Below are positions 1 to 64,000 of a DNA stretch of 64,000 bases, piece after piece. Positions within the stretch are counted from its first letter, which is position 1, and each line of letters begins with the position of its first letter. Under the pieces are notes generated by a model. It searched no databases and was not told the DNA's origin. It saw only the letters and a program-made list of their open reading frames with translations. A program made the translations under genes and the position numbers. The DNA is from Bacteroidota bacterium. Its GTDB lineage: Bacteria > Bacteroidota > Ignavibacteria > Kapaibacteriales > DASPKH01. Location of the stretch: positions 4,620 through 68,619 of the forward strand of contig JAZKFS010000020.1 in assembly GCA_040386315.1 (NCBI GenBank), read 5' to 3'.

Positions 1-1660
1 TGCCTGTATTATTACGGAAGGTAAAATGAACAGTTTTTTTCTTTTCACTTGCTACTGATAGAACTTTATCCGACGATTTATCACGATAAGCAATTCCTGC
101 AATATCCGAAGGATAGGTAAGTGTTGCTGGCTGTGACATCATAATATAATATCCGTTTCCCGCTCTCATTGAATCAAGCGCTTTTATGCCGAGCGCAGGC
201 CAATATACTTTTCCGTCATTATCCCGCGCCGCTACCAATGCTGTAGAAATTCCGCCAAGCGCACTTGCAATATCAATATTCGACCTGCGCAAATACGAAA
301 CAAGATTCCAACCCTTTTCAAGTGAAAGTCCTGTTGCTTCAGGAATTGATTTTAAACCGCGAATAGGCAATGCACTTCCTGCCAACATATATGCCTGATA
401 ACCATGCTGAAAATTCCATCCTCCAATTTCATTAATTCCAAGCGACGGCCAGTAAATATCACCCGCTCCATTTTTCATAAGTAAAAGCGATGGTTGGATT
501 GTCGCCGTAATTACATCAAGATTTGTTGTTTCGGGCAGGACATAGCTTGAAAAAGTATTCCATCCGGCATTTAAAGAAAGCGTTTGTGTCATATTTACGC
601 GAACGCCAAGCGAGCTGAGAACATACACATTATTTTTTGAGTAAAGCGCTGAGCCGCTTTGATATGTAGCAAGTGCATTGTAGCTTGTTCCGGTTTCCCC
701 ATCCCAAACCTTGTAAAGTAAAGTATCTCCCGGCGCAAATCCGTCTTTAATTGTGGTCTGGTCATTATCGCCCCAAACGGTCAGTGTGAGATTTTCACCT
801 TGCCACATGCCATAGCCACCGGAAATTGTATCTGCTCCGCTTACAAAGAAAACCCCGACAGCATCGCCTTTTGTAAGTAATCGCGTCCCAGTACTTGGCT
901 TGATAGCTTTAGGAATTGCAATAGTTGCGCTATTTCCTGTATTTGATGTGAAATTCCAAGTATCTGGTGGTGCAGCTGAAACTAAGCCATTTAATGTGAT
1001 AATGATTGAATCTGACAAGCAATTTACATTATATGTTCGTAAAACTAAATTAGCAGTATAGCTACCTGGATTTTGTGCAGTGAATTGAATTTTAATACTA
1101 TCTTGAGGGGAGGTAGTAAGAGGAAATTTATCTTTATTGATAATTACAAATGGTGAAGCTGTTGAAACAGAGGTTATAGTAACTGGAATTCCAGACTGAG
1201 AAAGTTGTATTGTAGTATCAATAATTTGCGTAGAGGTTTTAGATAGATTTATCTGGTTAGGTAAAATCTGTCCATTCTCGGGTCTATACAAAACTACAGA
1301 CTCACATTTGACTACTAAAGCAAATGTGTCACCATTGCCAGTAGTTAATTTGAAAGTATGTAAAAATAAACCTGATGTTTGAGGAGTACACCCCACTGCT
1401 GATGAGATAGCTCCACCAGCGACCAAAACAGTATCGTCTAAACGTGCTTTATTCATTTGGAAGATGCCACTACTTTCAGGCGCGAAGTTTCTTATTGAAA
1501 GCGCACTTATCCCGAAGTTTTCAAAAGTAACAGCTAATACTTTTGAATTTCCTACACAAATTTTACCAAAATCTAATGTATCAGGATTAAAGCCTACCTG
1601 AGCCAAGGCAATATCAAATGAAAAAATGAGGAAAGCAAATAAGAATAAAATTCGCTTCAT
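1..1660 (-). CDS. Secreted protein, N-terminal part only (gene runs off the left edge); signal peptide plus beta-sandwich (choice-of-anchor-D/ASH-like) region
   Basis: My own minus-strand translation from the ATG at 1660-1658 gives MKRILFLFAFLIFSFDIALAQVGFNPDTLDFGKICVGNSKVLAVTFENFG... The frame stays open to position 1. No competing ORF of 60 aa or more is listed between 400 and 1750. Composition is T/S/N/G-rich and K-poor, like the other surface proteins here. Confidence 0.6.
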   Translation of the reverse strand, partial: MKRILFLFAFLIFSFDIALAQVGFNPDTLDFGKICVGNSKVLAVTFENFGISALSIRNFAPESSGIFQMNKARLDDTVLVAGGAISSAVGCTPQTSGLFLHTFKLTTGNGDTFALVVKCESVVLYRPENGQILPNQINLSKTSTQIIDTTIQLSQSGIPVTITSVSTASPFVIINKDKFPLTTSPQDSIKIQFTAQNPGSYTANLVLRTYNVNCLSDSIIITLNGLVSAAPPDTWNFTSNTGNSATIAIPKAIKPSTGTRLLTKGDAVGVFFVSGADTISGGYGMWQGENLTLTVWGDNDQTTIKDGFAPGDTLLYKVWDGETGTSYNALATYQSGSALYSKNNVYVLSSLGVRVNMTQTLSLNAGWNTFSSYVLPETTNLDVITATIQPSLLLMKNGAGDIYWPSLGINEIGGWNFQHGYQAYMLAGSALPIRGLKSIPEATGLSLEKGWNLVSYLRRSNIDIASALGGISTALVAARDNDGKVYWPALGIKALDSMRAGNGYYIMMSQPATLTYPSDIAGIAYRDKSSDKVLSVASEKKKTVHFTFRNNTG

Positions 1661-1749
1661 TAGTAGCTCCGGGGTTGTTTTATTATCGTTTAGGTATTCC
1701 TGAAAATTAAGAAATAATTTTTCATTTAAATATCAATTCTTTTAAAAAC

Positions 1750-2565
1750 CTACTTCATCTTCAAAAGATACGTCGCCTCAAGCGCAAGGATTTCCTTCAC
1801 GCCGGGAATGCTTTTCAAAGGAGTGAGCGGAATGGCGGGCAGCCCGAACTTCATTTTAAAAACCGGGCGCAGCAGGTAATAATCTTCGCGCACAATATCG
1901 TAACCCGCCGAGCGCGCCGCTTTTAAAAACTTCCCCGCCGACAGGCGAATTCTTTTTAAACGATGCACTTCCTCCTTATCCACCTCATGCGCATCGCCCG
2001 AATCCACAATCGCGCTGAAAAACGGTTCCGGCAGCAGGTGCACATACGGCAGCTTGCCGAGCGCATTTTTTAAAATGTGCTGATGCCCGCCATAGGGCGA
2101 ATTATACGGCGGAAACGTCACGAGCAGGTGCCCGCCGGGTTTCAGCACCTTGCGGATATTGCGGATGGCCAGCTCCGCGTCGTCCAGGTGCTCTATCACA
2201 TCACGCAAAATCGCCAGGTCAAACGCATTCCGCCAGTGCCCCTTCGGCTCCGCACCTAAAATATCATGCTCGCTGAATTCAATGCCAAGCCCGAGCTTAT
2301 TGCTAATCTGCTGCCCGATGCCGATGCGGTACGTCGCAATATCCGTTCCCGCCGTCAGCCCCGCACCCGCCTCTTTAAAAGCCATCAGAACGCCGCCTTC
2401 CGCCGCGCCGATTTCCACCACCGCGTCCCCGCTTTTAAAGCCGCCATGCTGCCGCACATACGGCACCAGCACATCGCGCCCCAGCTGAAACTGATAGCCC
2501 CAGTAATATTTGTCATTTGACGTAATATCGGGCGCCGCGTTGATTGTTTGTAATATATCGGGCAT
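1750..2565 (-). CDS. Class I SAM-dependent methyltransferase
   Basis: 271-aa ORF. SAM-binding motif I VVEIGAAEGG, acidic loop TDI, post-I/II motifs ILRDVIEHL and LKPGGHLLVTFPP. Confidence 0.85.
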   Translation of the reverse strand: MPDILQTINAAPDITSNDKYYWGYQFQLGRDVLVPYVRQHGGFKSGDAVVEIGAAEGGVLMAFKEAGAGLTAGTDIATYRIGIGQQISNKLGLGIEFSEHDILGAEPKGHWRNAFDLAILRDVIEHLDDAELAIRNIRKVLKPGGHLLVTFPPYNSPYGGHQHILKNALGKLPYVHLLPEPFFSAIVDSGDAHEVDKEEVHRLKRIRLSAGKFLKAARSAGYDIVREDYYLLRPVFKMKFGLPAIPLTPLKSIPGVKEILALEATYLLKMK

Positions 2566-2610
2566 TGTTGTTTTTAAAATTCTATTTTTTAAATGCTTTT
2601 AAAAAGTATT

Positions 2611-2633
2611 GTCATTCCGGCTTGTCCGGAATC
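2611..2633. repeat. Short GC hairpin repeat of the GTCATTCC...GGAATC type
   Basis: gtcATTCCGGcttgtCCGGAATc: 7-bp stem, 5-nt loop. It has the same GTCATTCC/GGAATC ends as the hairpins at 2683-2706 and 2802-2825. Confidence 0.7.
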
Positions 2634-14879: not shown

Positions 14880-16823
14880 TTAACGAATTACAACAAGTGT
14901 TTTATTCATTGTCATACCTTCTCCTTGTAGGCGATAGGTATATGTACCGGCTCCTACTGAATTACCGCTGTCGTCTGTTCCATTCCATTCAGTTACATTC
15001 ATTCCCTTATCCATCAGACCTGCTTTTAAAGTTTTCACTTTATTACCAAGCATATCAAATATAGCAAGTTCGTAATTTCCATTTTGTGGAATTGCAACTG
15101 TAATAGAAGTTGTATTAACTACAGGATTTGGATAGTTAGATAATGCTTGTGTATTTGCATTTTCATCCTTATTTACCAATATCGACTGTCCTGACTTTTG
15201 ATTATCATTAAATCGAACTTCATTTATTGTTAAGCTTGCATCTGAAGTTTTTACAGTAATATAGGCAATTGGCTCGTTTGCATTAAATTCGCCAGTTGCA
15301 CTGATTACTACAGTACTTCCATTCCCTTCAATAAGCACCTTGTTTTCACCAAGTTCTACGCCACTAACTTCAAGAATCTCTCCGTTCACGTTGAATTTGG
15401 TTGCAATAGCGCCTTTAGCAAAACCATTTAATTGTACAGGGATACGATATGTATTTCCATCTACATTAACTGGTGTTCCGATTGCTACATCATTTGCAGA
15501 CTTTTCATTAACACCAGCACGTCCGTAAGGGATAATGGTGTCAAGCAACCAAGGAAGTGTTGGTACACGTCCTGACATGTATAGCATAATTAAAGCAGCA
15601 TCATATTCCGTTGCTTCGAAGAAGAATGATGGATTTCCTGCAAGAAATGGCAAAGAATTATCTGGTGCCACATTTGTTAAATCATAATCAGACAGATTAC
15701 GATTTATCACCGAGCGACGGTAACGTGGTACATCAGTTGAGTTATCAGCACTTCTTGTAGAAAAATAATACCGACCGTTATGATTTACATCTCCATGAAA
15801 AGCATTGCGCTCGCGAAGACTATCTAATGGACGATTCATTGCTTGTGCACGTAGGATAACGCGAGCATCATTCACTGTTACAAAACGATTCTGTGGTAAT
15901 CCACGGTGCTTACCAACCTGTGAAAGATCAGCATCGCCATCACCCCAACCACTTACAAGAAGACGTACATTTACACTTAGACGGACAACAGTGTCACTAC
16001 CACCTGAAGGCTGCCATAAATTTGAAAGGCGTGTACTTGTACGAGCTGTATTAATGTTACCATTAAACTCAAGTGCATTAATATAATCTCCATTTTCCCC
16101 TTTAATTCCAACTGACGCGCCTTGAGTTACTACAGTTGAACCGTTTCCACCAATTTGTCCGTATGCAAATTCAATATCACCTTGAAAATTGTTTGTATTT
16201 CCTAATCTTAGGCTATCTGACTCATATAGATAAAGTTGAAAATTAGCAACACTTGATGGAATAAGCTCATTATTAATATTCAAATTTTGCCATTGCACTA
16301 TAAATGCATTTCTGAATGTCCCGCTTCCATCATTTACAGAACGTGTTCCATAAGAAATCTCTGATGGCAAATACTGTGATTCACCAAGTGTTCCCGGACC
16401 TTTACGATAATAGTGATCTCCAAAAAATGGAGCAACAATATTTACCGGTTGTGTATTTGTAAACAGTGACTGAGGATTATCTGCCGGAATATTAGGTGGC
16501 TGTGTTTTCGTAAACAACACAAATCCATTAATATTTATCCAGACATCACTATAAAGCGTACCATTATAAGAAAATTGGAATGGTAGATTAACTCGAACAT
16601 ACCCATCATCTCTATCAGCAGGATCACTTGATCCAATCTGTGGGGGAAGTCTAAAGTCGTCAGCAGGCAGGACTGTCTTGCTAACCAGTGGAGTATAAGG
16701 ACGATTGCCTACTTTGGTAGCAGCCCTAAAATCCGCCGTAACATCTGCCTGTGCCTGTTGTGTAGTTGCGCCAAAGTATAAACCTAGAGCTGCACCTACT
16801 GCCAGAAGGACACGGTATTTCAT
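14880..16823 (-). CDS. T9SS cargo protein with dockerin-like Ca-binding segments and a cohesin-like module
   Basis: Signal peptide ...TTQQAQA. GDGDADLSQ...VNDARVILRAQAM and HGDVNHNGRYYF...EYDAALIMLYMSG. YRIPVQLNGFAKGAIATKFNVNGEILEVSGVELGE. T9SS/FlgD-Ig-like tail YPNPVVNTTSITV...FDMLGNKVKTL...GTYTYRLQGEG. Confidence 0.8.
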   Translation of the reverse strand: MKYRVLLAVGAALGLYFGATTQQAQADVTADFRAATKVGNRPYTPLVSKTVLPADDFRLPPQIGSSDPADRDDGYVRVNLPFQFSYNGTLYSDVWININGFVLFTKTQPPNIPADNPQSLFTNTQPVNIVAPFFGDHYYRKGPGTLGESQYLPSEISYGTRSVNDGSGTFRNAFIVQWQNLNINNELIPSSVANFQLYLYESDSLRLGNTNNFQGDIEFAYGQIGGNGSTVVTQGASVGIKGENGDYINALEFNGNINTARTSTRLSNLWQPSGGSDTVVRLSVNVRLLVSGWGDGDADLSQVGKHRGLPQNRFVTVNDARVILRAQAMNRPLDSLRERNAFHGDVNHNGRYYFSTRSADNSTDVPRYRRSVINRNLSDYDLTNVAPDNSLPFLAGNPSFFFEATEYDAALIMLYMSGRVPTLPWLLDTIIPYGRAGVNEKSANDVAIGTPVNVDGNTYRIPVQLNGFAKGAIATKFNVNGEILEVSGVELGENKVLIEGNGSTVVISATGEFNANEPIAYITVKTSDASLTINEVRFNDNQKSGQSILVNKDENANTQALSNYPNPVVNTTSITVAIPQNGNYELAIFDMLGNKVKTLKAGLMDKGMNVTEWNGTDDSGNSVGAGTYTYRLQGEGMTMNKTLVVIR

Positions 16824-16872
16824 AATTACTCCTTTATTTTTTTTAAATTATTATCGTATTAGTAATCTTGCT

Positions 16873-16898
16873 GAGGGTTCTTTATATAAAGAACCCTC
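16873..16898. promoter_or_regulatory. Perfect 26-bp palindrome between the giant adhesin gene and the next operon gene (RNA hairpin, no U-tract)
   Basis: gagggttctttat|ataaagaaccctc: the reverse complement of the first 13 nt equals the last 13 nt exactly. It lies in the 91-bp spacer 16824-16914. Confidence 0.6.
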
Positions 16899-16914
16899 CT
16901 GCAAAACATTATTC

Positions 16915-19900
16915 TTAGCGAATAATCATCATCTGACGTGTCATATTCACTGAACCACTTGATAGACGCGCTACATACATACCTGACGGTAATGCTATGC
17001 CATTTCCATCTTTTGCATTCCATTCTATTACGTTTGCAGTCCCTGCAGGATAGAATCCGCTAAAGTCAGCTACTTTGCTTCCTAAAGCATCAAATATCTC
17101 AAACGTTACCTTTCCTTCTACAGGAAGAGTAAATTGCATTTTCGTGCTGCCTGAGAATGGATTAGGTATGTTTTGGAAAGATTCGCTATTGAATCCTGCT
17201 ACCGGCTGCTCGTCTTCTACGCCACTTGCAAAGTCATATCTAATAACGAAGTTGCTTATCGCGTCACGGAAGATAGTAACAGTAATTGTACCATCAGCAG
17301 CGCTTGTATCAACATTGATATCTTGAGCACTACGAGATGCACCTGTTCTCATATTGATCGCAAAGATATTACCCTGCGAGCTACCATCTAATAACCACCA
17401 TGAACTTCCTGCCGGGTTGCGTACTGCATCAGTTTTTGCTGGAACATTATTTTTATTCCATTTGATGGTTACAGGATAATTAGGCGAGGTATTTCCAACT
17501 ACATCACCCGCCTGGAAGCGGCCTTTGTAATATGCTTCGCCGATCACCCCAGCTACTGCTCTTGGGAAAATATCCCTTAGGGCACCATTTGACGAAGGTA
17601 TTGTCCAACGAGTGTCATACACATCAATTGGTGGAATTGGAGGTAATTCATATTCACAATAGTTAGAATCGAGTTTACCTACTGCATTTGCAGATTCACC
17701 AGTTGTAGCATTGACTGCTGTACCCCATTCAATAACCTGGAATGCGCCTTTGCTATTTGAAATAGTCATTGGTACAATAAAGTCTGTTGGTTGAGATACA
17801 TTAATTTTATAGCTGATTGTCCTTCTTGCTCCAGCTTTATCTGTTGCTGTAATGTAAAGAGTTGCTTTACCTTGAGCATCAAGAGTATCCTGGAAGTTCG
17901 TAGCTGTAATCGTCAGGGTTACTGAATCCGTTGTCTGAGGTCCCGAAATCACACTTGGGGTAACTGTAAAGCCACTTTCAGTTGTAATTGTAACGGTCTC
18001 ATTTCCATTAGTTCCCTTACGTGTAAGATCAATATCTCTAAGCACGATTGTGCCAGTATATGATTTACCAATCTCAATACATTGGACAGTCGGAATTGCA
18101 GTTAGGATCGGAGGATGATTTACAGCTATTACGCGAATTGTGAATGTGCGTACATCTGTTAACCCGCCTTCATCTTTTACAACTACCGTAAATGTTACGG
18201 TTGTATCGTTAAATGGCAAGTCTGTTACACGTGGTGTTCCAAAAAGAATTCCACTTACAGGATCAATCTTTAACCAGTTTGGCGCTGTTTTTGAATTGCG
18301 CACATCGAATGAACCTGCTTCATCTGCGAAACACTCATCACGAGGGATAAATGTGCTTGTATCGTTAGCATAAAGCAATTTGAATCTCTGATCCTGGCCG
18401 AAGTTTGGATCTGTTACACGGACTCGACGTAGTGAATCAAGAAGTGCTATATTATAATCCTGATCTTCGATTGCATCAGGGAAAGTAGCATTCTCAATAC
18501 GTGGAGCAACGTTTACCATTACACGGCGTGTAAGTGTATTAATTCTTCCATGCCCATCATTAACCACAAATGTTACAGTAGTATCGGTATTTAGAGCACC
18601 TTCAAACTGACGTACCGGGGTTAATAAATTATATGCCTGAGCTGAATCAATTCTAATACTTAGCTGCCCTGCTGATGTAAAGTCTGCACCAAATGGATCC
18701 AGAGCATTAAAATCACCATATTGTCTAAAGTACTGATTAGACATCCAGGTAGGACGTACTAGAGTCACTTCATCTGTTACTGAATCAGTTGGATTACGGC
18801 GAAGTGCAATTGATTGGAATCCATAAGCTGTTTTACCATAACGGAAGTCCCAACCGCGTGCTGCTGCTGCCGCATCTTCAGCTTCATCATCAGTCTGAAG
18901 GTCAATCTGGAAACGTAGTTTATCTGTTAAATTTGCAACAAGCATCTCATCTGTTCCACACTTATAAACATTCTGTGTGAAGATAGGATTAGTATCTGTT
19001 ACAAATACTCTAAACTGATATGTAGCTATTGAATTAGCACCTACATTAATTGTATCTTGTTGTAAGTAGCGTGCATTCGTTACATCATAAGCTTCCGCAT
19101 GGAAATATGGCGGGAAGATATTAATATATCGTGCAATAACACTATCAGCTAATCCTGCGGCACGTAATGAATCCAATGTGTTGATATTTGGCGGGAAATT
19201 ACGAATTCCTACCGTTACCATTTCACCACCCGGAACCACAAATGGATTCGTTGGACGGCCACCAAGAACACGATAGCCACGTGCACCGAATGCTGTTCCC
19301 TGTGAAGCATTGATTGTTGTATCAGTTAGCCAATATGAAAGTCCAGATCCCGGCTCTACACTATATGTATAGGTTAGTTGCGTGAAATCATTTGGAGTCA
19401 ATACTGAACGCGGATCGTAGAAGATATTTGAATCTACTCCGCTGATTGTAAAGATTGAATCACGTCCCGGAGCACGTTCTAGATCATTTACATCACGAGG
19501 ATATGTTCTATCTTCGCTTACAAAGATCATATTACGCAACTCTACCGGCAGAAGATTACGCAGGTTGTTGATGTTACCTGTAAATACTGGAGGAGGTGTT
19601 GAAACTCCTACGTTAAATACTAACGCATCATCATAAGCTGCATTTACACCTTCATTCCAAAGTACCGTACGAGAAACTACCCGAACTAAATCTCCATTTG
19701 CAACCGGTAACGCTCTATAGCGCTCACCAGCCCAGAAATTAATACGATTCACCCTGTTTTGATCAATCTGACTATTGTCATCGTTTGATATTGGAAGGCG
19801 AGGACGATTGCTAAACTGAACTCCAAACTCGTTTGGAGCGCCTAAGACATTCGAACCAGCCTCATACCGGCGTCCGACTAGTGCTGCCGCATCTTCATTT

Positions 19901-22900
19901 GCTCCATTCTGAGCTAATTGAGCTAACAACTCACGTCCACTACCTAAGTTTGCTAATCCTTCAGCCGAACGGCGGAATGTCGTATTACCAGTTCTATTTG
20001 CTGAATCTGGTAGCATTTCAATCCGTCCTCTGAATATCTCGCTAGACGTTGTGACTTGGCGAAGATTCGCACGTACAAAGTCACCCGTTGTTTCGTTGAT
20101 TACGAAGAATACAGTTTCATTAACTGTAGGAGCATTTGGATGATCCTGGTTACTCAACTCTGCTGTTCCGCTATAATTAGCGCGTGTTTCAAGGAATAAA
20201 GGATAACCAATTGGCTGGTCGCCCTTGAATTCACTTTGCAGAGCATTGATATTAGCATCAACTTCAGCTACAAATGGATCACGTCCTAAACGGCGTACAT
20301 AGCGATTAAATGAAGGCGAACCCGCAGTATTTGTAAAACGACGAATTGATTTTGGAATACCTACAGCAAAGTCCTCAATCGGTGACATGCGACGACGTGA
20401 ATAATCAGCTGTCTTAATGTCCGTACCTTTATCAAAAAGATCATATATACGGCCCTGCATTAATAGTTTCTCTGGAATACTATTTGCAGCCGGTGTATTT
20501 TGATTATCAAATGCTATGTTGCCAACAGGAATTGGCGTATAGTTAAAACGTTGAGAGGATTCAAACGGCCCTTGCTCTTTAGGATTTGAACTATTGCGGA
20601 TATAACGCAAATGCGTAGTACCGTCACCAGCTACAAAGAAAGTCTCCTGAAGAGTTCCTGATTCCGGTAGTATTGTCGTTACCGGTGCTTCAGTCTGGCC
20701 CCAGTAATTACCGCGAAGAGTATCAACACCACCACTTCCAATAAGGCCGGTTGACGAAGTTCCTTTTGTATTAGGAGCATCAGGAAGGCGAATCAGAAAG
20801 CGTGCTGTATTATCATACATTGAATTCGCAGCAATGCTTGAAGAAGCATACGGAAGAGGCCCGATAATTTCTCCATAGAGAATTGCTCCCGCAAGATCAC
20901 TTGATGCAGGGTTTTCTCTGAAAGCCGAAGTTGTCCGGATATATGGCCCTGTAATTGCATTCTGCTCACGGCCTGTATCAGATAATGCAGTATTATTAGT
21001 AATAAGTGAGCGCTGGAATACTAATTTTAGATCGTAGTTATCTGAATATACCGCTGCTCCTGTGAATGCAGTATTATTTTGAATACGCACGCGATTAAAG
21101 ATAATAGAATCAGTACGACCGATATTATTTGTTGAAGCTTCATCAAGAATGTAAATAGCACCACCTAAGCCGGTACCGTTTTCAGGTAATCCTACGCCAG
21201 GGTGTGTACGTACTACATCACCTAATTGAGTTGTTCCTGTACCAAGCTGTGCAAGATTTACAACAGCTTCATTATCAATGAATCGTGTAAGCATCCGTGC
21301 ATCAGGCGGCGTAATTGCTGAAGCAGCATTTGTAAATACTTCATTTGACGAAGTAAATGTCGTTGCTTCACCTGATGGCAAGGTTGTTAACTGATCTAAG
21401 TCTGTTAACATATATCGTCTGGAATCATCACCAGGGCTAACCATTGCTACTGCTCCACCATTACTAAAGTTTGCGGTATTCATTACGAATTCCACTCCTT
21501 TTAGAACATTAAGAGTAGCGTTTAGCGTATAGATGGCACCACCACCACGAACCAACGCACGGGATGAAGCTTGAAGAGTTGCATCTGAAGTATCAACAAA
21601 TCTTCCTAGACCTACCACATTGCTGTCCAAGATAGCACGAACTATTTGTACATAGCGGCGCGCTAATGGCAAAGCCGGATCAATATTTAATGTAATAGCA
21701 CCACCGGAATACCCTGCTGTATTACGTGTAAATTCTACACGGAATGGGCGTGAATAACCAATAACCAGGTTACCTGATACACCACCAGCTCCATATACGG
21801 TCATGTTTTTCTGAGCATAGATAGCACCACCATGAAAGGTAGCTACGTTACGATCAAATACAACATTATACCCATAGTTGCGAGTTAAGATAAGTGCATC
21901 AGATCCACCAATGATTGGTGATGGGCGTACTTCGCTCAATGTCGCTGAATTACCAACGAAGATAGCACCGCCTCTTGAAGCTCTGTTGCTTAAGTAGTGT
22001 GATGGATATCTTGAATCAAGCGTCTGACCGCCACGAACCTGTAAACGTCCTGCAGTAGCATCTACATAAATAGCTCCACCCATTGAATAGCTCAATGAAT
22101 TTGTACCTGCAGTAGGATTATCACTGATAAATGGAACAATCGCTTGATTAGCATTGAATCTACCGGCAATTGTTACAGATGTCTGCTCACCTACATATAG
22201 TGCACCACCACGCGCTCCCAATGTACCTGCATTATTCTGAAGATTGTTAGCAATGTTACCGCTAAAGTTAATATAATCATTAGAACCGGTAGAAATACCA
22301 TTAACATCATTATTAACACCTAATGCCACTTCAATAGCACTTCCACCATTAGCAGCACTTGCACCGGCAATAACCATTGCCCCACCAAATGCCTGATTTC
22401 TGGCAGCTGTTCCATTAAAGGTTGCAGCATTATTTACATCGTCAGTTAAGATCGTACCTACACCCGGTACAAATATCTGGCGAACATTTGCATTAATTAC
22501 TCTATTTGCATCAAAGTTTAACTGACGAACACGTCCTAATAACACCGCTAAACGTGCATCATCCACACCTTGACGCTGTACATCTGTAAATGGCTCAGCT
22601 GTTGCCGTAGCAAGATTATCAATTGCAGGAATAGCCTGAACTACGGCTGCACCGGTTGAATTTTCAGTTACAGCACCGTTTGCAGTACCAGGATAATTCG
22701 GAAGCGCTGCTGTTGATACAGTTGGAAATAGTCCAGTTCCAACCGGAGCTTCCAGAAGTTGAAGAGCACCACCGCGATTACGGGCAAAGTTGTTTGTGAA
22801 ATTACAGTTTACAAGCCACGTACGTGACGAGAAACTTGTAAGAGCACCACCACCACCATTAGAACGTGAACGTAAATCATCATTTACTGCTGCACGTGCT

Positions 22901-23847
22901 GCTGTTGTTCCACCAGCTTGGTAATAATCTCTTCTATCTACTGTAGTATCTTTGCGGAAATCTTGAAAATTTACGTCACGGAAAAATGCAGCCCGTGCAC
23001 CCGGAAGAACAACGATATGTCCATACTCACGCGAGAAAGCGTTTACACGGCGACCTTTAAAGGTAATCGTTGATGGAGTAATATTTACACTACTACCATT
23101 TGCACGGAGGAATGATTGAATATTAATGTTTGGGTCAGTATTTGCAAACCGTAAGCGAGCTGCTGTATAAAGCAACGCTGCTTCAGGAGTTGCAAGAAAC
23201 TGCGGAGAATTCGTTGTTGCAGTCGGGTCACTTAAGTTTATTAAGTTACGATTACGCGAATTCGCTGTACCACCGGTTTGACCAGGAGCAAGCGTAGTAT
23301 CCAGGACAACGTTATAAACAAAATTATTTTTGCCTGAATTTGCAGTATTACGATTTCCTGCTACAGTTACCTCATTCGGTGTTGAAATTGTAAACACACC
23401 CGGAGATAAAAAGAAACCAGGATCAGCAAAACCATAAGGGCGCTGGATGCCCGGAGTTACCGGGTCTAGATCAACGTTAATAAAATTAACATTGTTGTAT
23501 GTTACCGACATACGCCCGTCAGCGATAATACGCCCGCCGGTCGAGTCAATCATACGGCCGTTATCGGTAAACTCTACAGTTGTACCCGGCTCAATAATTA
23601 AAGTACCGCCAATAGTATATGTACCATTGACGCGATAGAGAGTATCTCTCAAAAATACTCGGACTTCGCCGGGACTGACACGCCCATTGACTTCCGCAAT
23701 TGGCGGCGCAGCAAACACTTCAGAAGCTGAAAGTGCAAGCACCATCCATAAAGCTAAACGAAACAAACGTTGCATAGAACCTCCGTTTGGTAAAAAAGAA
23801 TTAACCACATTATTACTATTATTTATAATTTTTAAATCTGTTTTCAT
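16915..23847 (-). CDS. Giant (about 2300 aa) T9SS-secreted adhesin: Pmp-like right-handed beta-helix repeats, Ig/cadherin-like (He_PIG-type) domains, T9SS tail
   Basis: About 10 GGA[ILV] repeats, often with an FxxN context (NRGGALQLL, RGGALYVGE, MGGAIYVDA, RGGAIFVGN, HGGAIYAQK, SGGAITLNI, GGGAIYTLN, LGGAIYILD). APNWLKIDPVSGILFGTP...VVVKDEGG. Tail IPNPFSGSTKMQF...FEIFDALGSKV...GMYVARLSSG. The real start may be the second ATG at 23775 (MQRLFRLALWMVLALSASEVFA). Confidence 0.85.
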   Translation of the reverse strand: MKTDLKIINNSNNVVNSFLPNGGSMQRLFRLALWMVLALSASEVFAAPPIAEVNGRVSPGEVRVFLRDTLYRVNGTYTIGGTLIIEPGTTVEFTDNGRMIDSTGGRIIADGRMSVTYNNVNFINVDLDPVTPGIQRPYGFADPGFFLSPGVFTISTPNEVTVAGNRNTANSGKNNFVYNVVLDTTLAPGQTGGTANSRNRNLINLSDPTATTNSPQFLATPEAALLYTAARLRFANTDPNINIQSFLRANGSSVNITPSTITFKGRRVNAFSREYGHIVVLPGARAAFFRDVNFQDFRKDTTVDRRDYYQAGGTTAARAAVNDDLRSRSNGGGGALTSFSSRTWLVNCNFTNNFARNRGGALQLLEAPVGTGLFPTVSTAALPNYPGTANGAVTENSTGAAVVQAIPAIDNLATATAEPFTDVQRQGVDDARLAVLLGRVRQLNFDANRVINANVRQIFVPGVGTILTDDVNNAATFNGTAARNQAFGGAMVIAGASAANGGSAIEVALGVNNDVNGISTGSNDYINFSGNIANNLQNNAGTLGARGGALYVGEQTSVTIAGRFNANQAIVPFISDNPTAGTNSLSYSMGGAIYVDATAGRLQVRGGQTLDSRYPSHYLSNRASRGGAIFVGNSATLSEVRPSPIIGGSDALILTRNYGYNVVFDRNVATFHGGAIYAQKNMTVYGAGGVSGNLVIGYSRPFRVEFTRNTAGYSGGAITLNIDPALPLARRYVQIVRAILDSNVVGLGRFVDTSDATLQASSRALVRGGGAIYTLNATLNVLKGVEFVMNTANFSNGGAVAMVSPGDDSRRYMLTDLDQLTTLPSGEATTFTSSNEVFTNAASAITPPDARMLTRFIDNEAVVNLAQLGTGTTQLGDVVRTHPGVGLPENGTGLGGAIYILDEASTNNIGRTDSIIFNRVRIQNNTAFTGAAVYSDNYDLKLVFQRSLITNNTALSDTGREQNAITGPYIRTTSAFRENPASSDLAGAILYGEIIGPLPYASSSIAANSMYDNTARFLIRLPDAPNTKGTSSTGLIGSGGVDTLRGNYWGQTEAPVTTILPESGTLQETFFVAGDGTTHLRYIRNSSNPKEQGPFESSQRFNYTPIPVGNIAFDNQNTPAANSIPEKLLMQGRIYDLFDKGTDIKTADYSRRRMSPIEDFAVGIPKSIRRFTNTAGSPSFNRYVRRLGRDPFVAEVDANINALQSEFKGDQPIGYPLFLETRANYSGTAELSNQDHPNAPTVNETVFFVINETTGDFVRANLRQVTTSSEIFRGRIEMLPDSANRTGNTTFRRSAEGLANLGSGRELLAQLAQNGANEDAAALVGRRYEAGSNVLGAPNEFGVQFSNRPRLPISNDDNSQIDQNRVNRINFWAGERYRALPVANGDLVRVVSRTVLWNEGVNAAYDDALVFNVGVSTPPPVFTGNINNLRNLLPVELRNMIFVSEDRTYPRDVNDLERAPGRDSIFTISGVDSNIFYDPRSVLTPNDFTQLTYTYSVEPGSGLSYWLTDTTINASQGTAFGARGYRVLGGRPTNPFVVPGGEMVTVGIRNFPPNINTLDSLRAAGLADSVIARYINIFPPYFHAEAYDVTNARYLQQDTINVGANSIATYQFRVFVTDTNPIFTQNVYKCGTDEMLVANLTDKLRFQIDLQTDDEAEDAAAAARGWDFRYGKTAYGFQSIALRRNPTDSVTDEVTLVRPTWMSNQYFRQYGDFNALDPFGADFTSAGQLSIRIDSAQAYNLLTPVRQFEGALNTDTTVTFVVNDGHGRINTLTRRVMVNVAPRIENATFPDAIEDQDYNIALLDSLRRVRVTDPNFGQDQRFKLLYANDTSTFIPRDECFADEAGSFDVRNSKTAPNWLKIDPVSGILFGTPRVTDLPFNDTTVTFTVVVKDEGGLTDVRTFTIRVIAVNHPPILTAIPTVQCIEIGKSYTGTIVLRDIDLTRKGTNGNETVTITTESGFTVTPSVISGPQTTDSVTLTITATNFQDTLDAQGKATLYITATDKAGARRTISYKINVSQPTDFIVPMTISNSKGAFQVIEWGTAVNATTGESANAVGKLDSNYCEYELPPIPPIDVYDTRWTIPSSNGALRDIFPRAVAGVIGEAYYKGRFQAGDVVGNTSPNYPVTIKWNKNNVPAKTDAVRNPAGSSWWLLDGSSQGNIFAINMRTGASRSAQDINVDTSAADGTITVTIFRDAISNFVIRYDFASGVEDEQPVAGFNSESFQNIPNPFSGSTKMQFTLPVEGKVTFEIFDALGSKVADFSGFYPAGTANVIEWNAKDGNGIALPSGMYVARLSSGSVNMTRQMMIIR

Positions 23848-24765: not shown

Positions 24766-25016
24766 TTTTAAAAGACTGCTGCTAATCTTTTAAAAGCAAG
24801 TTGCAAATATAGCAGTCCCAAGCTCAAAAACAAATGAATTTTTTTTTAAAGTTTTTTTAAAAAGCAAATTTTGTGGAAAACTTTTCTACTTTCCCTTTTA
24901 AAAAGTGTCAGGTTTTTTTCATAGTGTCAGGTTTATTACACACTTTTTATTCTGACACTTTACACTTTTTAAAAAATCTTTTAAAAACTTGTTTTAAAAC
25001 TTCACGGTTTTTAAAA
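24766..25016. repeat. Array of 8 TTTTAAAA copies (E1 terminator / tRNA promoter region)
   Basis: Copies start at 24766, 24788, 24855, 24896, 24967, 24979, 24992 and 25009. Confidence 0.85.
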
Positions 25017-27227: not shown

Positions 27228-27296
27228 TTTTAAAACCTTGTTTTTAAAAACTTTTTACTATTTGAGATACCGACTTTTTAAAAGATTCTTTTAAAA
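27228..27296. repeat. 4 TTTTAAAA copies in the 98-bp ilvE/E1 spacer
   Basis: Copies start at 27228, 27242, 27276 and 27289. Confidence 0.85.
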
Positions 27297-28275: not shown

Positions 28276-28387
28276 TTTTAAAAAGAATACGGTGAAAAAT
28301 CGCAGCTCTTTTTAAAAGCTTTCATAAAATTTTTACTTTTAAAAACTTTACAAAAGCTTTTGAAAACTGCTTTCCTGTTTTTTAAAA
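28276..28387. repeat. 4 TTTTAAAA copies in the gatB/ilvE spacer
   Basis: Copies start at 28276, 28310, 28337 and 28380. Confidence 0.85.
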
Positions 28388-28419: not shown

Positions 28420-29868
28420 TTATGCTTGCTCTAAATGCTTTTTCAATGTTTCTGTCACAAGGCGCGGATTGCCCTTGCCCTGCGTGGCTTTTAAAACTGT
28501 TCCGACCATAAACCCGAAAAGATTCGTGCGACCGGCTTTATATTCTGCCACTTTATCCTGATTTTCTTTTAAAAAGTTGATGACCAGCTCATCAATCATT
28601 CCCGTATCGGAAACCTGCGCCAATCCGCGCTTTTCAACGATTTCCTTCGGCGATTCACCTTTTAAAACATCAGGGAAAATTTCCTTCGCGATTTTACTGC
28701 TAATCACATCCGCCGCGAAAAGGTCAACCAATTCCGCCAGCAATCTCGGCTGAACTCCGGTTTCCTGCGCTTCGATTTTTTTATCGCTCATAATGCGCAT
28801 CACGTCCGTCATCACCCAGTTGCTTACGAGTTTAAAACGGTCTTTCGATTTTTCAGCAAGGAATTCGCAGCACTCTTCAAAATACGCCGCGAGAGATTTT
28901 TCCTCAACCAAAACCGCCGCATCATACTCCGGCAAACCATACTGGTTTTTAAAACGGTCACGTTTTGCGCCCGGCAGCTCCGGCAGCTCATGCTTCACGC
29001 GATGAATCCACGCCTCGCTCACATTCACCGGCACTAAATCCGGCTCCGGGAAATATCTGTAATCGTGCGCTTTTTCCTTCGTACGCATTTCACGGGTTTG
29101 CTGCTTGCCCGCGTCCCACTGAAGCGTAATCTGGCGAACTTCACCACCCGATTTCGTCAGCTCGATTTGCCGCTGAATTTCATATTCCAGCGCTTTTTCC
29201 ACGTTGCGAAAACTATTCAAATTCTTCACTTCGGTGCGAGTGTACAGCTTATTATCGCCCTTCGGACGAACCGACACGTTCGCATCACAGCGCAGCGAAC
29301 CTTCTTCCATATTCCCGTCGCAAATCCCAAGATACATCACGGTCTGGCGGATATGCGCGAGATATTTATACGCTTCCTGTGGCGTGCGGATATCCGGCTC
29401 GGACACAATCTCAATCAGCGGCACACCCGAACGGTTCAAGTCCACAAGCGTGTCAATATCAAGGTCGTGAATGGATTTACCCGCGTCTTCCTCCATGTGA
29501 ATCCGCGTAATCCCAATTTTCTTTTTTGCGCCATCGTGCTCGATTTCCACATGACCATCATAGCAAATCGGGTCTTCATACTGCGAAATCTGGTAGCCCT
29601 TCGGCAAATCCGGATAGAAATAATTTTTGCGCGAAAAAGTCGAAACCGGGCGAATATTGCAATTCGTCGCCAAGCCCATTCTTAATGTGTACTCGACAAC
29701 ATTATTATTCAAAACCGGCAAACATCCCGGATGCCCGAGGCACACCGGACACGTATTCGTATTCGGCGAAGCGCCATACACCGTCGAGCAACGGCAAAAC
29801 GCCTTCGTCGCTGTCAGCAACTGAACGTGAACCTCAAGGCCTATGACCGCTTCAAAATCTGCGTGCAT
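28420..29868 (-). CDS. gatB: Asp-tRNA(Asn)/Glu-tRNA(Gln) amidotransferase subunit B
   Basis: EAVIGLEVHVQL, KAFCRCS...NTNTCPVCLGHPGCLPVLN, RIHMEEDAGK, and a C-terminal YqeY-like tail. Confidence 0.95.
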   Translation of the reverse strand: MHADFEAVIGLEVHVQLLTATKAFCRCSTVYGASPNTNTCPVCLGHPGCLPVLNNNVVEYTLRMGLATNCNIRPVSTFSRKNYFYPDLPKGYQISQYEDPICYDGHVEIEHDGAKKKIGITRIHMEEDAGKSIHDLDIDTLVDLNRSGVPLIEIVSEPDIRTPQEAYKYLAHIRQTVMYLGICDGNMEEGSLRCDANVSVRPKGDNKLYTRTEVKNLNSFRNVEKALEYEIQRQIELTKSGGEVRQITLQWDAGKQQTREMRTKEKAHDYRYFPEPDLVPVNVSEAWIHRVKHELPELPGAKRDRFKNQYGLPEYDAAVLVEEKSLAAYFEECCEFLAEKSKDRFKLVSNWVMTDVMRIMSDKKIEAQETGVQPRLLAELVDLFAADVISSKIAKEIFPDVLKGESPKEIVEKRGLAQVSDTGMIDELVINFLKENQDKVAEYKAGRTNLFGFMVGTVLKATQGKGNPRLVTETLKKHLEQA

Positions 29869-29915: not shown

Positions 29916-30163
29916 TTTTAAAAACTCCGCATAATCTTTTAAAGACCGCGCCTTCACAAGACTTAGTAGCTTTTACAGGCATTACGCGAAAGTCTGCAAA
30001 GATACGAAAAACATTCTAAACTTTATGTTTCACGCCGCGAGGATTTTTAAAAAGTGTAGTTTTAAAAACCTTTTAAAAAGAAATTCATAACAATTTGGTA
30101 ACATTGCCGCAGAATCATTGTTTTAAAAGCAAATCATCGCACTTTTTAAAAGAGTTTTTAAAA
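29916..30163. repeat. 7 TTTTAAAA copies in the divergent gatB / phosphatase promoter region
   Basis: Copies start at 29916, 30045, 30060, 30071, 30121, 30144 and 30156. Confidence 0.85.
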
Positions 30164-37155: not shown

Positions 37156-37327
37156 TTTTAAAAGATTATTCTGTTTGTCATCTGTTTTTTAAAAGAAAGC
37201 CAATATACTCTTTTAAAAGCTTGTTGTAAAAATGTTTTTAAAAGGATTTTACCAGCGAACAAAGCGTTAATTTTGTAATCTTTTATAAATTTATAAATCC
37301 TTGTAAAACTTTGTCAATCTTTTAAAA
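37156..37327. repeat. 5 TTTTAAAA copies in a divergent promoter region
   Basis: Copies start at 37156, 37187, 37211, 37236 and 37320. Confidence 0.85.
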
Positions 37328-44936: not shown

Positions 44937-44951
44937 GTTCTTTTAAAAACG

Positions 44952-44984
44952 AAAAACGCCGCCTTTTTTAAAAGCAGCGTTTTT
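44952..44984. terminator. Bidirectional hairpin between convergent genes, with TTTTAAAA at the apex
   Basis: AAAAACGCCGC (44952-44962) and GCAGCGTTTTT (44974-44984) are complementary with one mismatch. The loop contains the TTTTAAAA at 44966. A- and T-runs lie on both sides. Confidence 0.5.
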
Positions 44985-45007
44985 AAAGATATTTTCTTTT
45001 AAAAATC

Positions 45008-53027: not shown

Positions 53028-53100
53028 TTTTAAAACGAAAAAAGGTTTTAAAAGAATTGCTCTTTTAAAACCTTTTGCTTTTTAGAATCTATTTTTAAAA
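53028..53100. repeat. 4 TTTTAAAA copies in an 82-bp spacer between convergent genes
   Basis: Copies start at 53028, 53046, 53073 and 53093. Confidence 0.85.
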
Positions 53101-56259: not shown

Positions 56260-56380
56260 TTTTAAAAGAAATATGAAGAAGCGAAGTGTGTGGCTTTTTA
56301 AAAAACGAGCAGACGTAAAATATGAAAGAAGAGTTTTTAAAACAAATTTATTTTGTTAAATAATTGTGAATATTTTAAAA
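56260..56380. repeat. 4 TTTTAAAA copies upstream of the metalloprotease gene
   Basis: Copies start at 56260, 56296, 56335 and 56373. Confidence 0.85.
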
Positions 56381-59092: not shown

Positions 59093-59227
59093 TTTTAAAA
59101 GAAGTAGAGATAAGCTGCAAGATATGAAATAGTTTTTAAAAACCAATATTCCAGAACTCTTTTTAAAAGCCGATTCAGCTATTTCTCATAATTTTGCTTT
59201 TAAAACGTCACTGCATTCTTTTAAAAA
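59093..59227. repeat. 5 TTTTAAAA copies in a divergent promoter region (DUF2961 gene / prfC)
   Basis: Copies start at 59093, 59134, 59162, 59199 and 59220. Confidence 0.85.
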
Positions 59228-62735: not shown

Positions 62736-62737
62736 CT

Positions 62738-63421
62738 TCACGGGATCACCATCATCTGTTGAAGCGCTTCGCCGGAATTCGTGAAGAGCCGCACCCAATA
62801 CACACCCGCCGCAAAATTCACATCCGGAATAATTGAAAATGTATGAATCGTTGCTGTCTGCTCGCCAAGGTCTTTTAAAAGAATTTCTTTTCCCAAAAGC
62901 GTATAAAAACCAAACGTAACATTTGACGTTTTATCAAGCCGGTACGCCCACGTAATTTCCTGCCCGCGCGATGCCGGATTTGGAAAACCCTCTATCAATG
63001 TTGCGGGGCGAATGTATGGTAGTGGCGCACCAATTGATTCCGTGATAATTATTCCTTTAAAATCGCTCACCGCAATTCCGTCGATCGTCACATTTTTAAA
63101 AGAAATCTCACACACGGAATCCGAACCCGCAAGCGCTTCCCCTTTTAAAAATATCGTGTCGCGTGCCGAAAAACTGAACGAATAGACAGAATCATTTTCC
63201 CTTTTTAAAACAACAGAATCTGCTTTTAAAAACTCTTCGGGATAAAAAACCGTTGGATTGCTGAGCAAAAACTGTCCGGAAATTTTCACAATTTCCTCGT
63301 CAGGTTTATCAACGATCAGGCGCAATTCCACCTTCTCGCCAACGATCCCGTGCGCCGTATCAGACTGCGCGAATGCAAAAGTTTTTAAAAGGAAAAAACT
63401 AAAAAGTATTATTTTTTTCAT
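62738..63421 (-). CDS. Small T9SS-tail secreted protein with a cohesin-like body
   Basis: 227 aa. Signal peptide MKKIILFSFFLLKTFAFAQ. VELRLIVDKP...ISGQFLLSNPTVFYPEEF. Tail FPNPASRGQEITWAY...AGVYWVRLF...MMVIP. Confidence 0.7.
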   Translation of the reverse strand: MKKIILFSFFLLKTFAFAQSDTAHGIVGEKVELRLIVDKPDEEIVKISGQFLLSNPTVFYPEEFLKADSVVLKRENDSVYSFSFSARDTIFLKGEALAGSDSVCEISFKNVTIDGIAVSDFKGIIITESIGAPLPYIRPATLIEGFPNPASRGQEITWAYRLDKTSNVTFGFYTLLGKEILLKDLGEQTATIHTFSIIPDVNFAAGVYWVRLFTNSGEALQQMMVIP

Positions 63422-63423
63422 GC

Positions 63424-64000
63424 TTATTTATCTGTAATAATAAATTCCGTGCGCCTGTTTTTCCGGCGATTTTCTTCCGTATCATTTTTTGCAACAGGGC
63501 TGTTTTCACCAAAACCTTTTGACTTCAGTCGCGACTTGGCAATTCCCATTTTTAAAAGCGCGTTCATCACCGATTCGGCGCGATCTTCGGAAAGTTTCAT
63601 ATTTGATTCTGCACTTCCCTCATTATCCGTATGTCCGCGAACTTCAATTTTCAACGAAGAATAATTTTTTAAGACATCTGCAATTTCCTGAATTCGTGGT
63701 TGCGATTGAGCTTTAATTTCCGCGCTTCCCGATTCAAATTCAATATTCACCAGCGCAATGCTTCCCGTTTCGTCAAACTTTGAAAAAACCGAGCGGTCGT
63801 ACTCGCCCGATGCTTTTAAAACGTCGCCCAGCTCGGGGATTTTTAAAATCACATTTGCCGTATGGAGCGCCTCGCATTGCGGCGGCGTATAGGTTATTTT
63901 ATAATAATTATTCAGCGAACGGTAAATATCAGCGAAAACGTACGGAAATTCCTTGTTGGAATAGATCCTGTAAAACCGCCCGCCGGAATATTGCGAAAGG
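63424..64000 (-). CDS. OmpA-family protein, C-terminal part only (gene runs off the right edge)
   Basis: The listed ORF begins at a GTG (63852), but I checked the same frame codon by codon and it stays open to 64000 (...YRIYSNKEFPYVFADIYRSLNNYYKITYTPPQCEALHTANVILKIPE...). OmpA_C motifs: FESGSAEI...GHTDNEGSAESNMKLSEDRAESV...NRRTEF. Confidence 0.75.
   Translation of the reverse strand, partial: LSQYSGGRFYRIYSNKEFPYVFADIYRSLNNYYKITYTPPQCEALHTANVILKIPELGDVLKASGEYDRSVFSKFDETGSIALVNIEFESGSAEIKAQSQPRIQEIADVLKNYSSLKIEVRGHTDNEGSAESNMKLSEDRAESVMNALLKMGIAKSRLKSKGFGENSPVAKNDTEENRRKNRRTEFIITDK

Follow-up and report, generated by a model that had tools for sequence, protein, structure and literature searches.

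A dispersed all-A/T palindromic octamer in one Kapaibacterium-like clade of Bacteroidota as a counterpart of HIP1 and DNA-uptake sequences

The 64,000-nucleotide (nt) stretch of contig JAZKFS010000020.1 analyzed here (the window) is densely coding prokaryotic DNA with 41 genes over ~94% of its length, plus one tRNA-Arg gene. The genes include those for glycosyltransferases, cargo of the type IX secretion system (T9SS), gatB, and a 2-oxoacid dehydrogenase E1 component (E1), as well as methylmalonyl-CoA mutase with MeaB, histidine kinases, and RF3. Dispersed over genes and spacers are 215 exact copies of the palindromic octamer TTTTAAAA (T4A4), the first at position 1740 and the last at 63841. 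T4A4 is an independent, A/T-only counterpart of HIP1, the highly iterated palindrome (HIP) of cyanobacteria, and of the DNA-uptake sequences. T9SS sorting domains and the best hits of E1, which are labelled Ignavibacteria, Candidatus Kapaibacterium, and Kapabacteria, place the host in the Kapaibacterium/Ignavibacteria part of the Bacteroidota, within the Fibrobacterota-Chlorobiota-Bacteroidota (FCB) group; its genus-level placement is from protein best hits. The source contig, 113 kb long, belongs to an NCBI metagenome-assembled genome labelled "Bacteroidota bacterium" and encodes protein MES2764888.1. The host genome has a G+C content of 43% and prefers the codons TTT, AAA, and TTA.

The exact count agrees with that of an earlier reading of the window (the first-pass annotation), which had put about 215 copies between the same end positions. 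With base shares of A = 0.278 and T = 0.290, a Markov model of order 0 predicts 2.7 copies, within the one to three that had been allowed for chance, and orders 1, 2, and 3 predict 9.6, 12.3, and 25.4; the observed-to-expected ratio (O/E) is 80 (order 0), 17.5 (order 2), or 8.5 (order 3). Under order 3, TTTTAAAA is the strongest octamer outlier (z = 37.6), as had been anticipated, and the next outliers all overlap it. The maximal-order Markov expectation that had been proposed as a check is uninformative (209 expected versus 215 observed), because the 7-mers are themselves made by TTTTAAAA; Markov orders 0 to 3 and codon-preserving shuffles were used instead. The composition-matched palindrome AAAATTTT, estimated earlier at about 10 copies, occurs exactly 10 times; two of the positions given as examples, 28326 and 47171, are correct, whereas 6424 and 53504 should read 6435 and 53505. 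The other 15 A/T-only palindromic octamers number 0 to 12 copies each, which bears out the earlier view that AT-richness is not the cause. The density of TTTTAAAA in the window is 3,360 per Mb, or ~1 per 300 bases, and the same density was found in independent NCBI, JGI, and ENA assemblies and in three Logan SRA runs, so that the earlier concern about assembly artefacts could be dismissed. The T4A4 excess is confirmed as real and is neither compositional nor artefactual.

The unit is an octamer. TTTAAA occurs 338 times, against 33 to 73 (orders 0 to 2) or 151 (order 3) expected and against 57 copies of AAATTT, and it is preceded by T in 82% and followed by A in 75% of cases. The commonest one-off variants are TTTTAAAG (33 copies), CTTTAAAA (19), and TTTTAAAC (15), followed by TTTTAAAT (14), GTTTAAAA (11), and ATTTAAAA (10). 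One-mismatch variants are raised at positions 1 and 8 (10 to 33 each) and at the center (TTTGAAAA, 18) and are near background at positions 2, 3, 6, and 7 (0 to 9 each); the totals by position pair are 102 (1+8), 13 (2+7), 31 (3+6), and, with shifted copies excluded, 52 (4+5). The base before the octamer is T in 101, C in 70, G in 26, and A in 18 of the 215 copies, and the base after it is A in 78, G in 77, C in 42, and T in 18, so that what had been taken for a weak C/G flank is actually a preference for a pyrimidine at -1 and a purine at +1.

Genic copies use two reading frames only, NTT-TTA-AAA (79 copies) and NNT-TTT-AAA-ANN (52 copies), which are those that avoid an in-frame TAA. Shuffling of synonymous codons within genes, which keeps the protein sequence and codon usage of each gene, yielded 15.8 ± 3.3 copies (maximum, 25), compared with the 131 observed. 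T4A4 spells 79 of the 94 [FLIV]-L-K tripeptides and 52 of the 55 x-F-K-[IMTNKSR] tetrapeptides, that is, 84 to 95% of the compatible codon contexts are used, and TTA makes up only 22% of Leu codons overall in the window genes. In the window proteins, the dipeptides LK and FK are over-represented (1.66- and 1.52-fold), and KL and KF are depleted. Housekeeping proteins were not enriched in Lys overall relative to outgroups; the amino acid changes linked to T4A4 are local to its sites. Genes without a copy mostly encode secreted proteins that are poor in Lys and have hardly any peptide compatible with T4A4. One of these, the T9SS protein encoded at 16915-23847 (2,310 amino acids [aa], 1.6% Lys), has a single potential site, and the orthologues of the motif-free T9SS proteins in the related strains L081 and L207 (Table 1) are likewise without T4A4 and very divergent, with synonymous divergence (dS) of 1.5 to 1.8. 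T4A4 fills nearly all the positions left open to it by coding constraint, and these results show it to be a feature of the duplex DNA rather than of composition, codons, peptides, or RNA hairpins.

The remaining 84 copies are in the 3,919 bases of non-coding DNA or cross a gene boundary, which amounts to 21 per kb and ~17% of spacer bases, compared with 2.2 per kb for the genic copies (61% of the total). Nearly all spacers of at least 30 nt hold one to seven copies, irrespective of a tandem, divergent, or convergent arrangement of the genes on either side. A copy lies within 20 nt past the stop codon in 22 of the 41 genes and within 20 nt ahead of the start in 18, and four genes take their stop codon from the TAA within a copy. 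A role as a promoter or leader element was rejected, as 18 of 41 genes is near the expectation from spacer density and spacers between convergent genes are filled too.

Spacing is irregular, as had been noted earlier, with no regular tandem unit, and the start-to-start distance is at least 9 bp in every clade sequence. Inter-copy distances of up to 100 bp show a ~12-bp periodicity in the window (power, 10.9; reached by 0 of 500 jittered nulls), which was not reproduced in the independent clade regions L258, L367, L260, and L274 (P = 0.45 at 12 bp); as a window-only signal without replication, it was set aside as a property of T4A4. Repeat finding in the window gave no consensus past ~10 nt, as the first-pass annotation had held; repeat families share the octamer and one or two flanking bases only. 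Perfect palindromic extension averages 0.32 bp, below the 0.45 ± 0.05 obtained with permuted flanks, and none of the 215 copies in the window has four or more extra paired bases, which rules against a hairpin, cruciform, or terminator role. Where both genes around a spacer point the same way, the flanks show symmetry relative to transcription, (T,G) 11 versus (C,A) 10. Identity with miniature inverted-repeat transposable elements (MITEs) or repetitive extragenic palindromic (REP) elements was rejected, there being no extended consensus and 131 of 215 copies being genic, and identity with a CRISPR or tandem array was rejected on the irregular spacing and the lack of a consensus beyond ~10 nt; the earlier exclusion of CRISPR, REP, and MITE is upheld.

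Table 1. Positions of T4A4 arrays and related features in the window, and clade sequences carrying T4A4
Feature	Position in window or source	Strand	T4A4 copies	Remarks
Whole window	1..64000		215, dispersed	131 genic, 84 in spacers or at gene boundaries
Motif-free tract	14880..23847	-	0 in 9 kb	Two large T9SS-secreted proteins; Lys 1.6-2.9%; ≤1 codon-compatible site
Array	24766..25016		8	Between E1 dehydrogenase gene and tRNA-Arg; copy 24992 supplies the E1 stop codon
Array	27228..27296		4 in 98 nt	Between aminotransferase IV and E1 genes
Array	28276..28387		4	Between gatB and aminotransferase gene; positions largely kept in L081, partly in L207
gatB	28420..29868	-	4, coding	Copies at 28489, 28567, 28660, 28947
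Spacer	29916..30163		7	Divergent promoters
7TMR-DISM/TPR histidine kinase gene	30844..34071	-	14, coding	
Spacer	37156..37327		5	Divergent promoters
Spacer	44941..45004		3 in 71 nt	Convergent genes; promoter should be unneeded
Spacer	53028..53100		4 in 82 nt	Convergent genes
Array	56260..56380		4	Spacer
Array	59134..59226		4	Divergent spacer
L081	Logan SRR24788683		31 in 15 kb	~91% nt identity
L207	JGI 3300043546, contig Ga0485821_000007 (985 kb)		62 in 22 kb	
L258	Contig Ga0485821_000007		66 in 13.9 kb	~85 kb from L207
L208	Logan SRR35182696		26 in 13.9 kb	
L260-L262	JGI 3300020202, GCA_035628175.1, ENA assembly		10-13 in 2.3-3.2 kb	
L367	Metagenome contig		35 in 11.3 kb	With T9SS genes

In the leader of the tRNA-Arg gene, the copies at 24766 and 24788 are conserved in three strains, the intervening spacer included. 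This tRNA-Arg(CCG) locus (24677-24810) has an upstream Bacteroidetes-type -7 box (TATATTTG), and the words GTGTCAGG and CCTGACAC, which are operator-like, recur upstream of the E1 gene (~24900-24960) and are conserved in L081 and L207.

Across relatives, no T4A4 enrichment was found in the E1-orthologue loci of 80 GTDB species (59 to 76% identity); the top outgroup density is ≤0.5 per kb and occurs in genomes of 30 to 33% G+C in which AAAATTTT is about equally frequent. Two syntenic relatives, L203 and L204 (75 to 78% E1 identity), have the gene order gatB, aminotransferase, E1, TPR gene, and giant T9SS protein in common with the window and contain 2 and 0 copies in 22 kb. Five further clade assemblies carry T4A4, and at the clade loci L081, L207, L258, L260, and L367 it occurs at 2 to 5 per kb, the clade DNA examined amounting to ~180 kb including overlaps. 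L260 to L262 represent a more distant lineage, with a histidine kinase only 60% identical to that of the window. T4A4 is genome-wide and confined to one clade of several species-level lineages (dS of ~0.45 between them). The L260/L261 contig (DASPKH010000177.1 in GCA_035628175.1), saturated with T4A4 and encoding an FCB-type histidine kinase, lies in a metagenome-assembled genome (MAG) labelled "Patescibacteria group bacterium", where it is probably mis-binned. Exact look-ups of proteins from the window ends matched only short Logan contigs.

Among the matches listed in a metagenome scan for motif clusters, most were satellite or iteron arrays, and only L367, L274, and perhaps L366 were clade-like; no other lineage with dispersed T4A4 was found among the JGI metagenome matches listed or in the IMG/VR scans. 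Two IMG/VR scans gave no T4A4-saturated phage of the clade, the hits being tandem iteron arrays or chance matches in A/T-rich sequence. TTTTAAAA is the core of tandem 12- to 31-bp repeats in L329, L305, L276, L288, and L380 (metagenome) and in L176 and L120 (IMG/VR); such iteron or satellite contigs include phage, giant-virus, and A/T-rich ones, several of them from sample Ga0041059 with 24 to 31% G+C. Full-text literature searches found no prior description of dispersed T4A4, as the first-pass annotation, which knew of no such system, had led us to expect.

Codon alignments with the syntenic outgroups, a comparison proposed earlier as a check for lineage-specific gains, took in seven clade-shared T4A4 copies within the gatB, E1, and TPR genes. 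The outgroups encode other residues at six of these seven sites, with changes from outgroup to clade such as F-I/M to F-K, VL-A to VL-K, V-R/K-K to V-L-K, and D-Y-T to D-F-K; creating T4A4 therefore changed proteins. All four gatB copies are kept in L081 and L207, and syntenic outgroups differ from the clade Lys at three of the four; the clade-shared E1 site is identical in three strains. Between the histidine kinases of the window and L260, four T4A4 positions are common and ~5 are private to each lineage, with residue changes. One of the common copies is shifted by 1 nt (GTT-TTA-AAA versus GTT-TTT-AAA), which swaps Leu for Phe and keeps the motif. T4A4 arose after the separation of the Kapaibacterium-like clade from its closest sequenced relatives.

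In well-aligned blocks, L081 retains 11 of 11 window copies and L207 retains 20 of 26 (31 of 37 together), compared with 53 to 62% and 45 to 46%, respectively, of arbitrary 8-mers in the same blocks, these strain comparisons taking in a few tens of T4A4 sites. Spacer alignments show conserved copies within diverged flanks alongside turnover by point changes (TTTTAAAA to CTTTAAAA, TTTTAGAA, or TTTTAAAG), by 1-nt indels (TTTTCAAAA), and by insertions that bring new copies. At one L081 spacer site, three of four adjacent bases differ from both other strains (AATA or ATGA to TTTT) between identical flanks, which creates T4A4. The number per spacer is similar across strains, e.g., 4, 5, and 6 or 4, 7, and 5. 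T4A4 is retained between strains above the level of arbitrary 8-mers, while spacer copies turn over.

Divergence is uneven along the locus. From the window to L081, dS is 0.38 to 0.62 for gatB, E1, MeaB, and ilvE and 1.5 to 2.0 for the TPR gene, which has one copy, and for the motif-free giant T9SS gene (both within 16915-24674); ilvE (27297-28262) has a dS of 0.38 to L081 and 1.65 to L207. The neighboring genes with low dS (0.4 to 0.6) are mostly motif-rich. This mosaic of dS values indicates that alleles have been exchanged or replaced within the clade.

T4A4 is a lineage-specific highly iterated palindrome of the same class as HIP1 and the uptake sequences, the DNA uptake sequence (DUS) of Neisseriaceae and the uptake signal sequence (USS) of Pasteurellaceae. 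The analogy had been drawn in the first-pass annotation, and octamer sharpness, density, codon forcing, lineage limits, conservation, and outer-position variants all agree with it. HIP1 (GCGATCGC) and the alternate HIPs are, like T4A4, exact palindromic octamers at hundreds to thousands per Mb, which are found in genes and spacers, are lineage-restricted and conserved above control motifs, and have one-off variants that fall preferentially on the two outermost positions. The conservation of HIP1 between genomes was tested by Xu et al. (PMC5861425). For HIP1, as for T4A4, methylation-linked repair, nucleoid structure, and transformation are competing explanations of the function. With O/E values of 80 (order 0) and 17.5 (order 2), T4A4 lies within the range of 15 to 300 that characterizes the top palindromic octamer in the HIP class, but it is neither GCGATCGC nor a derivative of CGATCG or GATC, and its host is not a cyanobacterium. 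The HIP class is further defined by cognate orphan DNA methyltransferases specific for the core of the motif and by a periodicity of 10 to 90 kb at the scale of the chromosome. HIP1 is 75% G+C and cyanobacterial, whereas T4A4 is pure A/T and belongs to a Kapaibacterium-like member of the Bacteroidota/FCB group. The density of HIP1 is 300 to 2,700 per Mb (PMC4390886), in line with the earlier statement that T4A4, at 3,360 per Mb, is at least as dense; per kb, the values are 0.3 to 2.7 and 3.4 to 4.8. Unlike HIP1, T4A4 is ~10-fold concentrated in spacers, as arrays, and contains no cytosine that could be methylated or deaminated. Lacking GATC and CGATCG, it cannot be read by the HIP1 methyltransferases DmtA and DmtC.

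DUS and USS are likewise short, exact, clade-specific words in genome-wide excess, enriched in spacers and accommodated in codons where the encoded peptides are tolerated, and they can be explained by molecular drive without a per-site benefit. In contrast to T4A4, a palindromic 8-mer at 3 to 5 per kb, they are non-palindromic 9- to 12-mers at ~1 per kb that often form inverted terminator pairs, which were not found for T4A4 in the window (extension, 0.32 versus 0.45 ± 0.05). The defining property of DUS and USS is biased uptake by a naturally competent host, through a receptor such as ComP, and T4A4 is likened to them by distribution and codon accommodation. The methylated RAATTY of Campylobacter jejuni (CtsM) is an A/T-rich palindrome that marks self DNA for transformation (PMC10046745), but it is a degenerate 6-mer, common by virtue of an A/T-rich genome and not reported to be hyper-iterated, and its signal is the methyl group. 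Chi (RecBCD/AddAB) is comparable to T4A4 in being short and over-represented, and it functions in recombination and can label self DNA; it is asymmetric, G-rich, co-oriented with replication, and in few-fold excess, whereas T4A4 carries no orientation and, being its own reverse complement, cannot be strand-biased. REP elements and bacterial interspersed mosaic elements (BIMEs), MITEs, and CRISPR repeats are repeated and often intergenic too, but they are units of 20 to 150 nt with hairpins or regular spacing outside genes, none of which applies to T4A4. The iteron and satellite arrays contain the same octamer at high local density, but in tandem, with conserved spacers, over a few hundred bp and not in codons. 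A Type II target such as TTTAAA would be expected to be avoided or at most neutral in its host, whereas here TTTAAA is over-represented.

It is plausible, although short of probable, that T4A4 is the read-out of a new genome-wide recognition system that arose recently in a single clade of Kapaibacteriaceae, at the level of a genus or family, and whose reader is related neither to the HIP1 methyltransferases nor to the DUS receptor of Neisseria. The motif implies a reader of two-fold symmetry; a symmetric protein would read the all-A/T octamer, and biased uptake, recombination, or repair would have rewritten ~17% of spacer DNA and many codons. As to the mechanism, we tentatively favor the possibility that T4A4 serves, by analogy with DUS and USS, as a self-DNA tag in natural transformation and recombination. 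DNA fragments or alleles bearing it would be preferentially taken up and recombined, and the motif would spread by molecular drive, with no per-site benefit needed, until protein constraint halts it. Drive up to that constraint would leave spacers at ~17% motif, the compatible codon contexts 84 to 95% used, and Lys-poor secreted proteins motif-free. Established modelling by the Redfield laboratory reportedly shows biased uptake to be sufficient by itself for such motifs to build up. Drive is favored over site-by-site selection because there are ~10,000 sites per genome, including amino acid changes, on a short branch, and uptake or recombination is favored as its route because allelic exchange within the clade is evident and because precedents exist. 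DUS and USS are oligomers recognized by uptake systems (PMC4390886), C. jejuni takes up only DNA methylated at RAATTY (PMC10046745), methylated HIP1 raises transformation >100-fold (bioRxiv 10.1101/2024.09.10.611283), and HIP1 abundance co-varies with DNA-uptake genes (bioRxiv 10.64898/2026.06.24.733823). T4A4 might similarly be read only when adenine-methylated, as RAATTY is in C. jejuni and HIP1 in Synechococcus.

Several points weigh against a self-DNA tag. Among the window genes, scans with Pfam, NCBIfam, and PADLOC detected none for a DNA methyltransferase, a nuclease, competence, or a nucleoid protein, and no competence, pilin, methyltransferase, or nuclease genes were found in the ~100 kb of clade DNA read, which held only housekeeping and T9SS genes; two S-adenosylmethionine (SAM) methyltransferases in the window lie in glycosyltransferase contexts and have only generic SAM-binding-fold matches. 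Known DUS and USS are non-palindromic 9- to 12-mers at up to ~1 per kb, often terminator-paired, whereas T4A4 is a palindromic 8-mer at 3 to 5 per kb with no hairpin extension, and arrays of three to eight copies per 100- to 300-nt spacer are unexpected if extra copies add little uptake. The host is uncultured, its competence is conjectural, and the mosaic of dS values shows no more than allelic exchange. The link between high dS and absence of the motif is confounded by the fast evolution that surface proteins undergo in any case.

Biased repair or gene conversion within the cell is a doubtful alternative, in which an orphan N6-methyladenine methyltransferase specific for TTTAAA or T4A4 would act with a nicking or mismatch-repair partner to convert near-cognate sites to T4A4. 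The exact palindromic 8-mer speaks for it, as does its inner hexamer TTTAAA, a classical Type II specificity (DraI/AhaIII). Near-saturated codon contexts and dense spacer clusters fit a site-independent process, and the clustered change of three of four bases with identical flanks at one L081 spacer site also counts in its favor. Methylation-linked biased repair is the model of Elhai for HIP1, and the pile-up of one-off variants at positions 1 and 8 (102), with background levels at 2, 3, 6, and 7, follows the HIP1 pattern (PMC4390886). However, Vsr-type repair of deaminated 5-methylcytosine, the sole well-understood route of this kind, cannot apply because T4A4 is pure A/T, which excludes deamination of 5-methylcytosine and N4-methylcytosine alike; nor was a methyltransferase or nickase found in the ~100 kb of clade DNA inspected. 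Xu et al. held for HIP1 that conservation favors selection over continual replenishment (PMC5861425), and T4A4 is likewise conserved.

It is rather unlikely that T4A4 is the binding-site code of an abundant symmetric DNA-binding protein, nucleoid-associated or globally architectural, for which selected sites would organize or insulate the chromosome. The filling of almost every spacer of at least 30 nt regardless of gene orientation, the proximity to stops and starts, the 9-bp minimum distance, and conservation above background are all consistent with such a code, whose best specific support is the ~12-bp phasing within the window. T4A4 is reportedly straight and A4T4 bent, according to Hagerman. 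The central TpA step of T4A4 is distinctively flexible. A nucleoid-structure role has also been proposed for HIP1 (PMC5861425). The phasing, however, was not replicated in the independent clade regions, start proximity (18 genes) is near the spacer-density estimate of ~14 of 41, and the post-stop excess (22 genes) is only ~2.5 standard deviations. Nucleoid proteins seldom need an exact 8-mer, and selecting ~10,000 sites singly, amino acid changes included, on a short branch is costly compared with drive.

A signal at the RNA level, with UUUUAAAA serving for RNase cleavage, for pausing or termination, or as an A/U-rich enhancer of translation and paired copies as A-U hairpins, is very improbable. 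T4A4 is frequent in 5' leaders and directly after stop codons, and a few copies lie between imperfect inverted terminator-like flanks (e.g., 44958-44990 and 49725-49750). Genes of the Bacteroidota type lack Shine-Dalgarno sequences and favor A-rich leaders. A strand-specific signal, however, needs no perfect palindrome, which only 1 in 256 octamers is; the flanks are symmetric to transcription, palindromic extension is below the shuffled null with no copy having four or more extra pairs, and 61% of copies lie within genes in two reading frames. Practically no credence is left for the absence of any special feature, for although T4A4 consists of A and T only, in a genome of 43% G+C that prefers TTT, AAA, and TTA codons, and TTTTAAAA lies inside tandem iteron or satellite repeats of other public contigs, composition, codon or amino acid usage, mobile elements, tandem repeats, and assembly artefact are contradicted by 215 copies versus 2.7 to 25 expected and 10 of AAAATTTT, by codon-preserving shuffles, by lower-G+C relatives without enrichment, by the lack of a consensus beyond 10 nt or a regular tandem unit, and by the agreement of independent assemblies from different samples. 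RNA-level, compositional, and artefactual explanations are effectively excluded.

Research on highly iterated palindromes, now 30 years old, has dealt almost exclusively with cyanobacterial HIP1, and their function is disputed. An all-A/T example in another phylum separates the general traits of such elements (a sharp palindrome, codon rewriting, conservation, and outer-position tolerance) from those specific to cyanobacteria (GATC/CGATCG methylation and cytosine chemistry). If T4A4 is the read-out of a new recognition system, highly iterated palindromes would have originated a second time, independently, and such elements would need no cytosine-methylation chemistry, as T4A4 contains no cytosine. 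T4A4 is young, syntenic relatives at ~77% protein identity being without it, and comparison of T4A4-positive and -negative genomes should therefore leave a short list of reader genes, which is impossible for the phylum-wide HIP1. The motif is also a strong signature for binning and host assignment in this clade, and it cautions that k-mer outliers can reshape protein sequences.

Gene content and composition vary around the motif. In L207, the histidine kinase gene at 30844-34071, with its 14 copies, is replaced by a 4HBT thioesterase gene, and a LigT-like gene stands in place of a 509-aa open reading frame (35615-37144) that has no T4A4 and no Pfam, NCBIfam, or PADLOC match. Neighboring window genes range from 0.22 to 0.72 in G+C at third codon positions (GC3) and from 0.29 to 0.56 in gene G+C, which is unusually heterogeneous for one contig; GC3 does not simply track T4A4 density, the gene at 13682-14878 having a GC3 of 0.24 and eight copies. 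A MITE-like element at 2681-2825 has inverted arms of 30 nt that match perfectly (CTGTCATTCCCCTGAAAAGGGGAATCAACG and its reverse complement) and are separated by 85 nt. In L207 (~6950-7130), an element related to it, whose arms are GTCATTCCCGCGGAGGCGGGAATC, lies upstream of gatB and is missing at the orthologous place in the window, an insertion polymorphism. A spacer inverted repeat at 45478-45614, with 55-nt arms that are 75% complementary and a core of CATTCTGAGCAGAGCGAAGAATC and its reverse complement, possibly belongs to the same family as the element at 2681-2825.

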